Assembly (NCBI GenBank): GCA_000934665.2
Contig: KZ538010.1
Coordinates: 1 to 64,000, forward strand
Length of the DNA: 64,000 bases
Direction of reading: 5' to 3'
Source of the DNA: Catajapyx aquilonaris
Taxonomy: Eukaryota
Shown one piece after another: positions 6,929-64,000 of the stretch; positions within the stretch are counted from its first letter, which is position 1, and every line of letters starts with the position of its first letter. The notes under the pieces are model-generated. The model saw only the letters and a program-made list of their open reading frames with translations, was not told the DNA's origin and did not search any database. Made by a program: the position numbers and the translations under genes.

Positions 6929-7999
6929 AGTGCCTATGGCTCAAATGACACGATATTATTCTTGAAAATCATGTGGGGCTTGATGCTTTAATACTGTATA
7001 TCTATGAATGTATTTCTATGCTTGTACTAATGATTCCATAAATTACACTTTGAAGGCTCATTAGTGGTAATCTCTTTGCTATATCTAGCGAGCATATCCA
7101 TTCCTACATCCCTGAAATGAACATGTCATGTTACCGAGCACATATGTTCTTTGCAACCATCGTTACTGGGCATACAAGTACTTTGTATCAAGTATGTCCT
7201 TGCATTAACAGACAAGATAATTCTTGCTCCCTCTCAATTATAGGTTAAAATGGCTATCAAAGCATGCATCCGTATGTTCCAGATCTCAGTACAAAGTTCA
7301 TTATTCTTGTCCACTTCACTCAAGTTGATATATCAACTTGTGCATGTGAAAGATATATATATTTCACATGCTTCAGGCTAGTAATCTCATACCAGCCAAT
7401 ATTAGTTCATTGCAGAGGATGTATCTGTCGGAAAACATCGCTGGGGCCTGCTTCACAGAAACACCCAACAATTTCATGCCCCGAAACAAGGTTGATATTA
7501 AGAAGTGTACAGGTAGACCTCCAGATGAATTTTATTCACCAATCATTTTTACAAACATCCCCCCCAAGAAAGAGAGAGAAAAAAAAAAAATCCCTTTGGA
7601 AATCACAGCTCTATGCTTAATTTTGCCAGTCCAATGGTCCTTTTTAAATCTTCAAACCCAGTTAAATTGGCGCATTATTCGAAAGCTAAGATCCAGTGAG
7701 CACAGGCAAGCTACTTTTCCCATCTGTTCCTTTGCCATGATTCCAGGCAACCAAAATCTGTCTTCTCTACCACAAAAGATTATTGAACAGATATCCCAGT
7801 CACCATTTTAATCCCAAAATGAGTTATGTAACAAAAACAGCAGTTTCTTGACTAGTCTAATTACGCAGAGTAACTGAATTCCGATGACACCAGAAACTAA
7901 ATACAACCAACGCAGGCTGAGGAGGCTTTTAAAATTCCATCTGAATATATTTTTTCCCCACCATTCCAAACATTTTTGAAGCTAAAGCTAAGCAAAAAC

Positions 8000-20224: not shown

Positions 20225-20351
20225 GTATTTGGACAAGCATAATAAAATAATTACAATGAGCAAGCTCTTTCAATGAGATATGTCTGTGACAGACATATCT
20301 CATTGCAAGAGCTTGCTCATTGTAATTATTTTATTATGCTTGTCCAAATAC
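20225..20351. repeat. 127-bp near-perfect palindrome
   Basis: 63-bp arms 20225-20287 and 20289-20351, one mismatch, 1-nt spacer. Confidence 0.95.
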
Positions 20352-54017: not shown

Positions 54018-55761
54018 CTGCCTGACGAAGCCATCTTTCTTCCGGATTGAATTTGTAGAGGGTTGGGGACGCTTTGTTTATTTTCCGGCCCACTATTGTG
54101 AAATGAAACCTTTTTAAGGAAAAACATAAAAAACGAACGAGCATTTAGAAGCCTGTCCCACTTTTCGTTGTCCCTCTTCCACCCAACCCATAGCCAAAAG
54201 ATATCAGACTGAGAGCTACTCAGCTTTTTATGGTTTTGGCTTATGCAGATATCATGTCCTTTCCCTTACCCCCCCCCCCCCCACCCACCCCCCACCGAAT
54301 AAGCCCGCCGCATGCGAAATTAGTTTTTGTTCAAGGTCACACAATATTATGTGAATGTAGTAACTGACAAAGTACAGTTTAATCCTCCTATACTGTAACT
54401 CTGTAAGCACNNNNNNNNNNNNNNNNNNNNNNNNNNNNNNNNNNNNNNNNNNNNNNNNNNNNTTTTTTTTTTTTAATATTTGTATTTGGAATCAGTGCTT
54501 GCATCCAAACGCAAAGGAAATTTGAATGTTATAACTGATCCTTCTCGTGGAAACCTTTTCCACGAGAAGGATCTGCTATGATGCTCCATGTATTGTGTTT
54601 TTGAAGGCTTTGCGGGCGATTGCAGGTTGATTGTACATTGTTGCTTATGCCTCTTTTTTTTTTTCCGTGCTATCCCATATGGAAGGTAGGGGCTACTTGT
54701 TTTATACTGGATCGAGTCTTCCCTCCCAGTGGAAATGAATGTACGAGAGGGAAGGCTGGTGTACCCCTGCCACCCCTCCCCCCCAATTAACCCAGACAGA
54801 AAAATGAAGGAATAAGAGAATGGAAAAATGTGTTGTTTTTTCTAGCGTGAACATGCGTGTGATTCTTCCATGCCCTGTTCCCTGTGCCCAAGAAAATGAG
54901 CTTTGTTGCTTTTGGAGTAAATGATCAGATGTCAGTCTTCCTGGCTGTTGCCTTTTCTGTACCTTCTCCCCTCCCCTTCCTCGAACAACTGGTTACAATA
55001 CTTACTTTACATATTATCATTACCTTTTTGTCACTGTCATAGCTGGATGGCTTGTGGGCACGTAGTGCAGATGAAGATGCAACAAAATCATGTTTTTAAC
55101 ATTTTGATGTTGGTTTAGTTCTTTTCCCTACCCCAAGTTGCCTCTCATTGATTTGAGCTTAGCCGTGCAAGGTTGCCGAGGCCTTTATTTTATACACAGC
55201 AATATAGGAATAAAAAGAGAAGTTTCTTGTACAACTTGTACTGTGATTTTTCCATTCTTCATTTTTATTTCAATAAAAGTATTGATATATAAAATGTACT
55301 GAAGTCGCATACTTGTGTCAACTCCCCAACCTATTCGCAATGCTAGATTTGGACAACAACACGGCCATGGATAGAAATAATTTTATCAACAAGATCCGAG
55401 GTGATCCAGTACCAATTGGATTTCAATTGAAATGGAATGACCTAAACATATAAGTATTCTCATCATTGTTGGGCAGATGTGCCAATAGCAACAACGTGCA
55501 CTAGGCAGGATCGAAAGGAAAGAAAAGGCTCATTTACATCCTCTACTCTTTTATTACATCACATTGAGAGACAAACAAACGAGTATTTTAAAAATACATC
55601 TTGTGAGTCAGGAATTAGACTGAGAGATGCGAGTTAAACAACGGACGGGTCCTATTTGTTGTCGGAAAATGGAAATGAAAGTTCCCAGTCGTCCAGTTAA
55701 ATAAACCAAAATACCAGGTGAGTTTGGAATGAATCTGAAAATTTTTAAACCCATTGCTTTA

Positions 55762-59480: not shown

Positions 59481-60505
59481 TTACCAGGGAACTTTACTTC
59501 CATCGTACTGTATGAACTGTCCATTGTGCTTGTGGGTTAGAAACTTCAGGACGTTGAGTATTCCTCCTATGCTCTCCTCTGTTGTCAATGGTGCTTTTGG
59601 ACCTCCAAGACCTGTCTTGACCCATCCCGGATGAAGACTGACAACCATGATGTTATCCGCAGCCAGGTCATTGCTCAATGATCTCGTGGCTGCATTGAGT
59701 GCGGCCTGAAATAATAGTGTAACACTAGAGTCTACATTGCTGCACAACATTATGGAATCAATGCAAAGTCAACTCAAAATATTATCAAGTGACCCTTCAT
59801 GCAGAATATTCAACCTTGCTGCATCTGTAAGGATAGAAGCCTCCTTCGACATTCTTCTCCATTGAACCCAAAATAGAGCTCATGTTGACGACAGCTGCCC
59901 TGGAGACTCCAAAAGGTTTGTCTGTGTTCTTCGCAGCCGCCCTTTTGAGCATGGGAACCATCTCCTTGGTGAGGAGAACGGGGGCCAGAGTATTCACCAT
60001 AAAAGTGTCCACCATCGCCTCCGCCTTGACCATCCCAATGCGGGTAAACTTAGGAGAGGTGCCAGCATTGTTGATCAGGACATTCAGACCATCTTCTCCC
60101 ACCACCTTGTCAACTTCTGATGCCACTTTGGAGAAGCTGGCAAAGTCATGCATATCTGTAGTACATGTTAGAGCACATCAATTACTGCTGTGATTAAACA
60201 TACAAGCGCAGTGTGTATGACCCTTTCCAGACATACCTAACTTGACCAGGTGTATGCATGGATGCTTCTCGGCCAGACTTTTCAGCTCCTGAAATGTGCA
60301 TAATCACATTACTTGTTTCTGTGCAAGTGCAATGTGCTCATACCTGTGCAGTGTCTGGATTCCTGTAGGTGGCAAAGACGTGCCTCAGTCTGTCAGTCCC
60401 ATCCTGTCCCTCATCCCTGAGCACCAGCTGCCTGACAAACTCCAGTCCGAGACCCCTGTTGCATCCGGTGATGAAGAAGGATGAGGGCAGGTTGTGCAGG
60501 GCCAT
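59481..60505 (-). CDS. sni: Short-chain dehydrogenase/reductase, C-factor/sniffer-like carbonyl reductase (259 aa, 4 exons)
   Basis: Exons 60505-60344, 60288-60237, 60155-59815, 59705-59481; ITGCNRGLGLEFVRQL, LINNAG, NMSSILGS, YRCSKAALN, LHPGWVKT, YDGSKVPW. Confidence 0.92.
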
Positions 60506-60746
60506 CTTGTACACCCCACCCATGAAGGTATCCCACATATTCGGTCCTACCTCCTGGTGACCCTCATGGGACACAACACAGCACGAAGGCCACCAAATCC
60601 AGCCTTGACCCTTGGCCCCAGCTGGCAGGGATGGTATCGACTGTTGCTACTGAGCATCGCCCACCCACACACACACTCACATGTGAGCAACATACGTTGG
60701 ACGCATTGCAGGAAAAGGTTGGAGACCGACTGTCTGAGGCTGCTCC

Positions 60747-63025
<2,279 letters not shown>

Positions 63026-63465
63026 TGCCACCTCTCGCTTTATTTTAGAAGCGAGAGGTGGCGGACAAGACTGATTGTTTCTAAACACTTGGTTTAAGCT
63101 GCCTTGGTTTTTCATTCTGGATGTTGCCTCAATAGATACTCTCTCTCTCTCTCTCAAACTTGTAGTTTCCCTCGCCACAAGTGTAGAACAGCAAAAGCAG
63201 CACCCTTTCATTTGCTGATCTAAGTTAAAATCATGGGAAGTACTGCCTACTGCTGTCAAAATTAAACTGGATATGTAAATTGCAGGAATGCTGCTTTTAC
63301 TCCTTTAAAACTAATCTGTATATTAGCTGCAGGTTTCTCATTCATAACAGCTCATGAAAATTCTGGAAATGATAGCTATAGTATAACATAGTCAGTTATG
63401 ATAGATCAAAATACTTAACTAATGCGACAGGCGGAGTTTAAAAAACCAGGGCAGCCCAAACCAAG

Positions 63466-63524
63466 TTGTGCGAATGACGTCCAGCCTGTAAACTTGTTAA
63501 AAGGGAGGCTGGACTGAAGTATAG
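63466..63524 (+). promoter_or_regulatory. SECIS element (type II)
   Basis: AUGA 63474-63477, helix GUCCAGCCU/AGGCUGGAC, unpaired AAA 63490-63492, mini-stem CUU/AAG, UGAA 63515-63518, helix I UUGUGC/GUAUAG. Confidence 0.93.
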
Positions 63525-63525
63525 G

Positions 63526-63531
63526 AATAAA
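63526..63531 (+). terminator. Polyadenylation signal of TrxR
   Basis: AATAAA immediately after the SECIS. Confidence 0.7.
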
Positions 63532-63583
63532 TCAAGTCTTAATATTGTACATAATATTATTGAAAATTAAAAATGTGGTACAA

Positions 63584-64000
63584 TCACCACCAGACATCTG
63601 TCATTTCTTCAGGGCACCCAAACCAATACTGGGGGGAAGGCAATGGATACCTCTCATCAATCATGACCACAGCATCATTGAACCTCCAGAATGCCTTTCC
63701 CTTGAAAAAGTATGTCTGCCCATCAGTCCAACGCATGGCTGCATCCAAATCACTGGGAACGCCTCGCCACAAGTCCATGCTTTTGGGGTATCCTTCGTCC
63801 AGGCGGGTCTCGTTTTCCAAGTAGCGCCAGTAGCGATCACCACTGTAAGTCAGTTTTATTTCATTGACATATTCTGAAGGCTATCCAGCTAGATGCAACA
63901 GGCAATATTCATCAACCAGTCTCACCTGTAGAGGTATGTCTTTCCATTTTTGCCCCAAACCAGAGCTGCATCAACATGGTCTACATCATTAGGAATTCCA
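63584..64000 (-). CDS. Matrix metalloproteinase, last two exons (hemopexin repeats); gene continues beyond the window
   Basis: Exons >64000-63926 and 63842-63584; VDAALVWGKNGKTYLYSGDRYWRY..DEGYPK..WRGVPSDLDAAM..TYFFKGKAFWRF..YWFGC. Confidence 0.88.

Follow-up and report, generated by a model that had tools for sequence, protein, structure and literature searches.

The TXNRD2-type (mitochondrial) thioredoxin reductase (TrxR) gene of Catajapyx aquilonaris has a perfect hairpin at the very start of its 3'UTR, six nucleotides behind a UGA codon that we read as selenocysteine (Sec). It appears to be this gene's version of a helix that opens the 3'UTRs of Sec-TrxR genes across eukaryotes: by one fixed rule, a helix was detected at the same place in 40 of the 87 other non-redundant eukaryotic Sec-TrxR ends among the matches listed. 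The hairpin is a real and probably functional member of the proximal stem-loop kind, and is a clean example of these known structures, not a new kind. What our analysis adds is the coincidence between two paralogs, a positional peak with controls, and long-range forms of the helix that come close to the SECIS element. Thioredoxin reductases depend on a penultimate selenocysteine, and the question addressed here is how the UGA wins against termination only two codons from the stop. Termination at the Sec UGA of TrxR yields an inactive or harmful short form, according to PMC3628699.

A perfect hairpin behind the stop codon of a TXNRD2-type gene

The gene lies near the end of the window, by which we mean the whole 64,000-nucleotide stretch of DNA that was analyzed (Table 1). 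By profile matches and translation, its middle exons encode the FAD and NADPH domains with a CVNVGC centre, and the first exon looks like a mitochondrial transit peptide, judging by its Arg/Ala/Ser-rich and acid-free make-up. Named relatives of the last exon are mostly TXNRD2 proteins (62-69% identity). A quick tree, from which 25 of the 89 loci (the TXNRD1/3-type paralog described below included) were dropped because their last exons are short, placed the gene in the animal TXNRD2 group with an SH-aLRT value of 99. The reading frame closes with TGC (63014-16), TGA (63017-19), GGT (63020-22) and TAA (63023-25). A spliced RNA contig (run X5) spans 62160-63457 with zero differences to the window, so the hairpin is part of the transcript. 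RNA contig joints at 60837-60934, 61286-61438 and 62453-62537 bridge three of the four introns; the one near 61667-62059 is unbridged by any RNA contig. The RNA contig end at 63457 precedes the SECIS element and is uninformative on SECIS transcription.

Table 1. Features of the TrxR gene and its 3'UTR (positions in the window).
Feature	Position	Strand	Basis and remarks
First coding exon, TrxR gene	60747..60837	+	30 codons; translation; joint 60837-60934 in RNA contig
Middle TrxR exons	60934..62453 (about 60934-61288, 61440-61666, 62060-62453)	+	PF07992, PF00070
Last coding exon, TXNRD2-type (mitochondrial) TrxR	62537..63025	+	PF02852; end reads Gly-Cys-Sec-Gly-stop
Sec UGA, penultimate codon	63017..63019	+	read as Sec from family motif and SECIS
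6-nt spacer, Gly codon GGT and true stop TAA	63020..63025	+	sequence
Hairpin	63026..63063	+	14 Watson-Crick pairs and a U-G pair at each end; 6-nt loop; begins at +7 after UGA
Long-range helix, 5' arm	63087..63112	+	26 nt, 88% complementary, 15 contiguous pairs
Long-range helix, 3' arm	63441..63466	+	pair probabilities 0.92-1.0
SECIS element, candidate	63465..63531	+	RF00031, 29 bits, E = 0.0013, below gathering score 35; fold
AATAAA, possible polyadenylation signal, at SECIS 3' end	63526..63531	+	read from sequence

An earlier note on this DNA had proposed the hairpin as a stop-codon redefinition element, and its geometry proved exact: the arms at 63027-63040 and 63049-63062 are perfect reverse complements that flank 63041-63048, and the spacer between UGA and stem has the six nucleotides that it gave. 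The U-G extension that it had suggested is borne out by folding, which adds the pair 63026/63063 and also 63041/63048, for a total of 16 pairs. The stretch 63010-63100 folds at -37.8 kcal/mol (z = -5.84), and 0 of 200 shuffles were equally stable. In a 610-nt context the basal U-G has a pair probability of 0.69, and the 15 pairs inside it range from 0.93 to 1.0. The hairpin sits entirely 3' of the UAA stop, outside the coding sequence. It is one of three perfect stems of at least 14 bp in the 64-kb window; the other two, at 54537-54573 and 20271-20305, are palindromic, with 16-17 bp and 3-nt loops.

The same note had named occurrence as a genome-wide repeat as evidence against its proposal. 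In the C. aquilonaris genome we found the hairpin to be single-copy: own-genome DNA searches, which skip very common words, gave one match for 62900-63120 and one for 63064-63540, and the 14-mer arm has one further exact copy in the genome, which lacks a full second arm beside it. DNA read depth is flat across the hairpin region. The single copy and the flat depth are not those of a MITE or other dispersed inverted repeat, of which many copies would be expected.

A stem of different sequence at the same position in the paralog

We found only one other TrxR in the genome, a gene of TXNRD1/3 type on contig G000:C4765 (L008; minus strand, about 7110-7190), whose coding region also ends in Cys-UGA-Gly-UAA. 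Its 3'UTR has a 16-bp stem of unrelated sequence that starts at +7 (z = -6.77). Two of its pairs are G-U, a further hairpin of 8 bp lies inside it, and the whole stem-loop is 60 nt long; this stem was found after the +7 position had been fixed. It is stronger on the sense strand (-40.7 vs. -33.7). The SECIS of the paralog lies at +109 and scores 36.4 bits, above the Rfam threshold.

A helix opens many Sec-TrxR 3'UTRs

We scanned metagenome contigs with a pattern for TrxR C-termini that covers ends of the form K-x-S/T-G-x6-G-C-U-G only, and obtained at least 119 stretches, whose TrxR status was judged by eye from their translations. From the first 80 loci we dropped 7 that were not TrxR, 3 that were too short and 9 near-duplicates, which left 61; 39 further loci lost 8 non-TrxR matches, 4 duplicates and 1 that was too short, which left 26. 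A locus was called positive if the 12-mer at +7 to +18 had a partner within 200 nt that was significant, by comparison with dinucleotide shuffles, at P <= 0.01. Among the matches listed, 29 of the 61 loci in the first set were positive (31 of 63 with the two C. aquilonaris genes), and so were 11 of the 26 in the second set, to which the same rule was applied afterwards. With the two own genes included, 42 of 89 loci among the matches listed were positive and 47 were not significant at +7 within 200 nt. Chance pattern matches that are not TrxR gave 0 of 16 positives at P <= 0.01. In viral contigs, a general Sec pattern gave 7 matches, none of them a TrxR, and a TXNRD2-specific pattern gave 0 matches.

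The signal is sharply localized. When we slid the arm along the loci listed, partners at P <= 0.02 were found in 13, 28, 33, 21 and 4 of 63 loci at +1, +4, +7, +10 and +13, and in 5 and 7 at +19 and +25; the background in these loci is 0-2 of 62-63 within coding sequence and 0-2 of 50-63 at +31 and beyond. All TrxR genes have the invariant end UGA-GGN-stop, so a position of +7 from the UGA is inseparable in this peak from the first base of the 3'UTR. We mapped 41 helices in the loci listed, of which 38 start at +5 to +8, a count that is partly built in because the mapping was anchored on +8. Most of the 41 open with G-C, C-G, C-G, and they enclose spans of 19 to 187 nt. Across the loci listed, the helix interior ranges from a few bases to more than 500 and the position of the base is constant. 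The pairing is also specific to each gene: 27 of the 89 arms listed pair better with their own UTR than with any of the 88 others, where about 1 is expected. Over their last 100 residues, the 34 positive rows in our tree share 39-92% identity (median 51); they are spread over many branches, with 12 of the 34 supplied by one clade of 20 rows, so the loci are not independent.

Compensatory changes, strand bias and the TXNRD2 group

The earlier note had suggested aligning TrxR stop regions to look for covariation. We found compensatory changes in the paralog's group and in protist-like groups. In a sequence-only MAFFT alignment of seven related loci, 92% of the cells are paired and 3 of the 15 pairs are changed on both sides, a modest covariation signal, matched by 7 and 23 of 500 shuffles on its two principal measures. 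For the animal TXNRD1/3-type ends, registers were picked by best helix and are hence fitted. In these registers the ends have U-A, U-G, C-G or A-U at +17, and the paralog departs from the others in having G-C in place of C-G at +8 and A-U in place of C-G at +9. Thirty-one loci reach significance in antisense; the duplex of the sense strand is the stronger of the two in 23 of them and the weaker in 5.

For the orthologs of the window gene the result is different. None of the six other PTVTGC-type TXNRD2 ends among the matches listed, which form the true ortholog group, has a +7 stem within 200 nt. The covariation that the earlier note proposed to look for was seen in the paralog's and the protist-like groups. 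Absence of the stem from orthologs, which that note would have counted against its proposal, holds in part: it applies to the PTVTGC-type TXNRD2 ends (0/6), and the stem recurs in the paralog and in the 40 of 87 ends listed. One further locus with the TXNRD2 intron position, L113, is weakly positive, with seven contiguous pairs only. Three TXNRD2-type loci without a +7 stem (L073, L091 and L128) have a common CUCU/UUGUCAC-like motif at about +15 to +28, which could be a SPUR-like sequence element or simple kinship.

Relation to known stem-loops behind Sec codons

The earlier note knew of no such element in thioredoxin reductases, which the literature contradicts. Proximal stem-loops (PSLs) have been predicted in six of eight human selenoproteins with C-terminal Sec, including TR1 and TR2 (Cockman 2019, PMC6844570), with their function described as unknown, and Euplotes crassus TR1 has a stable stem that begins 10 nt behind its Sec UGA, was proposed to delay the ribosome, and has been disrupted and deleted (Turanov 2013, PMC3737529). 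By the definition in PMC6844570, a predicted stem-loop that opens the 3'UTR of a gene whose Sec is among its final codons, the window hairpin is a PSL. As in human TR1 and TR2, it stands directly after the true stop and a few bases from a penultimate Sec UGA, and human TR2, one of the six genes with a predicted PSL, is the ortholog of the window gene. The PSLs of PMC6844570 were predicted from single human sequences, by folding the initial 30-50 bases of each UTR. The stem described here is stronger and perfect, both paralogs share its register, and it is compared with 87 other ends listed, with controls; among these are helices formed with a partner hundreds of bases away, which a 50-nt fold could not see.

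The six-nucleotide spacer matches that of the Sec redefinition element (SRE) of SELENON (SEPN1), as the earlier note had it. The SELENON SRE is a stem-loop 6 nt after the UGA that raises Sec insertion (PMC3628699, PMC8704476, PMC4561486, PMC12936836), and both genes have a SECIS in the 3'UTR. The window hairpin resembles SREs in following a UGA that we read as Sec, in a gene with a SECIS match below the gathering score, and in its stem start at +7 and its z-score. SREs of the SELENON, SPS2 and SELENOT type lie in coding sequence, whereas the window stem lies in the UTR behind the true stop; and the loop and spacer sequence matter in the SELENON SRE, whereas the loop is unconstrained across TrxR stems. 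We call the hairpin SRE-like by geometry only.

The stem of SELENOS (SL1, or PSL) likewise combines a penultimate Sec with a covarying stem at the start of the 3'UTR, and consists of a 14-bp stem and a 6-nt loop (PMC8659212). It differs in lying 9 nt from the UGA, in hiding a primate splice site, and in its mixed effects: SL1 promoted Sec insertion in lysate (Bubenik 2013, PMC3628699), whereas in cells the stem was inhibitory or spacer-like, and deletion of the PSL raised recoding (PMC6844570). Deletion of the SELENOK PSL had no effect in the same study.

Euplotes crassus TR1 is likewise a TrxR with a stable stem just after the Sec codon, and the pausing hypothesis proposed and tested there is the same, with a stem start at 10 nt rather than a 6-nt spacer. 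Disruption or deletion of that stem left the Sec codon unaffected in HEK293 cells (75Se gel, heterologous overexpression; PMC3737529). The earlier note had counted unchanged Sec insertion in a stem mutant against its proposal; such a result exists for the Euplotes TR1 stem, from a single, heterologous and qualitative test. The sharp positional peak and the covariation across distant eukaryotes argue for selection on the stem despite this negative test. In the full-text literature that we searched, which leaves most subscription papers and one supplement of PMC3737529 outside, we found no cross-eukaryote survey of these stems and no long-range form.

A proposed modulator of UGA decoding

We favor, with moderate confidence, a reading in which the hairpin is a selected helix at the opening of the 3'UTR that modulates UGA decoding and is not required for it. 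Judging from ribosome geometry and the spacing of the SELENON SRE, a ribosome with the Sec UGA in its A site would have a helix based 4-7 bases past the UGA at its mRNA entry channel. If it forms in vivo and acts during UGA decoding, as we infer, it would slow the ribosome or hinder the release factor at the UGA, and the likely direction of its effect would be to tilt the race towards the Sec-tRNA brought by the SECIS.

Long-range helices and the distance to the SECIS

A rather unlikely alternative, partly compatible with modulation of decoding, is that the helix has no action on the ribosome itself and instead folds the 3'UTR, in the window gene together with a long-range helix, and so keeps the SECIS close to a ribosome standing at the UGA, at a constant distance. 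The distal SECIS that the earlier note had assumed is present as a match to RF00031 (Table 1), with an AUGA core at about +455 from the UGA, an unpaired AAA, a 3' UGA and a type II-like mini-stem. The long-range helix, which that note did not mention, is single-copy, has a z-score of -4.25 when folded without the hairpin, and a P value of 0.016 in the comparison of bridging helices described below. It loops out about 330 nt, and its core 15-bp part ends about 19 nt before the SECIS core; only a few tens of bases then separate the SECIS from the hairpin. This helix is not stronger on the sense strand (-37.3 vs. -38.6), and a convergent hemopexin-domain gene ends at 63584; together these leave its strand unsettled and speak against the scaffold reading.

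Seventeen loci listed have both a significant helix and a SECIS-like element. The linear distance to the SECIS in these 17 is 77 to 654 nt, and despite this range the SECIS lies 40-169 nt past the helix end in 16 of them. The one exception is the window gene itself, with 411 nt from helix end to SECIS, a gap that the second helix closes to 19 nt. In this comparison the first 24 bases were left unshuffled, and as a result very short hairpins such as that of L040 come out as non-significant. A point against the scaffold reading is that SECIS-like elements were called with a simple script, in 39 of the 89 loci among the matches listed.

Long-range partners point in the same direction. In L011, L012, L050 and L054, which are related animal TXNRD1/3-type loci, the +7 arm pairs over 12-15 bp with a partner 189-567 nt away that precedes the SECIS by 66-90 nt. 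Both arms are kept in all four, and the sequence between them, much of it CA/GT microsatellite, differs greatly in length. The TXNRD2-type locus L034 has a 13-bp helix from +12 to +766 and a SECIS at +802. The SECIS elements of L034 and L054 are supported by Rfam, below gathering. The spacer-like behavior of the SELENOS PSL (PMC6844570) also suits this reading. Against it, a bridging helix was found in only 6 of 14 loci with a distant SECIS among the matches listed, four of them close kin, with 1 of 8 in a control window; the short hairpins of L018, L040 and L061 shorten no distance; and the UGA-SECIS distance of Euplotes TR2 could be doubled without a change in coding (PMC3737529).

Two further observations concern these arms. 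With L079 included, the post-stop arms of L011, L012, L050, L054, L079 and L034 pair over 12-16 bp with a partner 189-766 nt off. The 3'UTR of mouse TXNRD3, inspected by eye in a paper supplement, has the same opening CCCUGCUG motif as the long-range animal TXNRD1/3-type loci.

We put forward more tentatively a combined possibility, that eukaryotic Sec-TrxR mRNAs have an old, position-fixed clamp helix. Its base would be set 4-7 bases after the UGA and its partner strand, immediately ahead of the SECIS, could be as far off as about 560 bases, and the helix would both meet the ribosome and dock the SECIS. It would explain the efficient decoding of a Sec codon two codons from the stop. It would also explain why TXNRD1 and TXNRD3 insert Sec only near its natural position, which PMC3737529 ascribes to the SECIS itself, and in the TXNRD2 gene of the window two helices together would produce this arrangement. 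Judging by the long-range forms, SECIS assays on minimal fragments probably overlook one level of how the 3'UTR is organized.

Termination or mRNA stability

It is also unlikely that the helix serves termination at the true stop, protection from decay or the binding of a dsRNA protein at the start of the 3'UTR, and not Sec decoding. The position allows this, since the base of the helix coincides with the first UTR nucleotide and pairing often extends into the stop codon (A-U pairs at +5 and +6 in 24 and 25 of the 41 mapped helices among the loci listed). The little effect on Sec insertion of the published deletions (PMC6844570, PMC3737529) suits it too, as does the description of TR1 and SELENOK PSL function as unknown in PMC6844570. 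Against it, ordinary ORF ends lack the helix: by our rule, other long-ORF ends were positive in 2 of 104 cases from the same contigs and 0 of 61 from the own genome (2 of 165 together), and real Hsp70/Hsp90 ends in 0 of 4, these four being the true chaperone ends among 30 loci from an EEVD-stop pattern that otherwise gave mostly chance matches. The Cys-form SELENOO of the C. aquilonaris genome has no stem after its true TGA and one viral Cys-type TrxR (L169) has none after its stop, each a weak control with n = 1. The SELENOS PSL changed neither the mRNA level nor translation in general (PMC6844570), and with the true stop in the A site, the first pairs of the helix would already be unwound.

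Locus L169 lies on an IMG/VR contig of 296 kb, giant-virus-sized, and encodes a large-type TrxR with a Cys-Gly4-Ser-Cys-Gly end. Other Cys-TrxR candidates, 2 viral and 26 prokaryotic pattern matches, were all chance matches, and a search of the Rdx family gave no placeable Sec codon.

Chance and other identities

In our view the hairpin is very unlikely to be a palindrome that arose by chance, or a remnant of a small inverted-repeat element, lying only by coincidence where other TrxR genes have a functional helix. The missing stems of the six other PTVTGC-type TXNRD2 ends listed and the two other perfect 16-17 bp stems in the window would fit such an origin, as would the near symmetry of the 14 perfect Watson-Crick pairs, which fold almost equally well on the opposite strand (-30.0 vs. 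-28.3). For an estimate of local density we counted comparable helices (14 or more contiguous pairs, -23 kcal/mol or better, both strands, a threshold set after the paralog had been seen) and found 17 starts in 184,887 bases of own-genome DNA, or about 2 x 10-4 per given 4-nt slot, and hence per gene. The hairpin is moreover single-copy, with a flat DNA depth unlike that of a repeat in one of the gene's introns, and it shares its register and its G-C-C opening with other TrxR stems.

It is extremely unlikely that the hairpin is a bacterial-type SECIS bound directly by an elongation factor, as its position just after the UGA and the speculation that SREs derive from bacterial SECIS elements (Mariotti 2015, PMC4561486) might suggest, or a microRNA precursor, since loops of TrxR stems vary freely in length and sequence and a normal eukaryotic SECIS is present, and since the Rfam miRNA matches reach only 15-18 bits against gathering scores of 80-100 and cover 28-36 nt of a hairpin only 38 nt long. 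The hairpin is not itself a eukaryotic SECIS (RF00031), as 63026-63063 has no AUGA/UGA core, and at gathering score Rfam gave 0 matches across the window.

Gene structure and neighbors

The third intron of the TrxR gene contains, at about 61790-61890, a high-copy repeat with internal direct and inverted repeats and a depth of about 50x background. An intron before the last CG-L-T exon, present in the TXNRD2-type loci L023, L026, L034, L073, L091, L113 and L128, is absent from the window gene, which has thus lost introns. On the 3' side, the hemopexin-domain gene has its last exons at 63584-64000 on the minus strand, convergent on the TrxR 3' end; we take it to be matrix metalloproteinase-like. 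Its stop (63584) lies about 50 nt beyond the SECIS, and the UTRs of the two genes may overlap. On the 5' side, a gene that looks by eye like a short-chain dehydrogenase lies at about 60000-60520 on the minus strand, head to head with the TrxR gene, and the two start codons are only a few hundred bases apart. Elsewhere in the genome, the SELENOO homolog on contig G000:C978 (L197) is a Cys form with the end VSCSS-stop, so this lineage combines a Sec TrxR with a Cys SELENOO.
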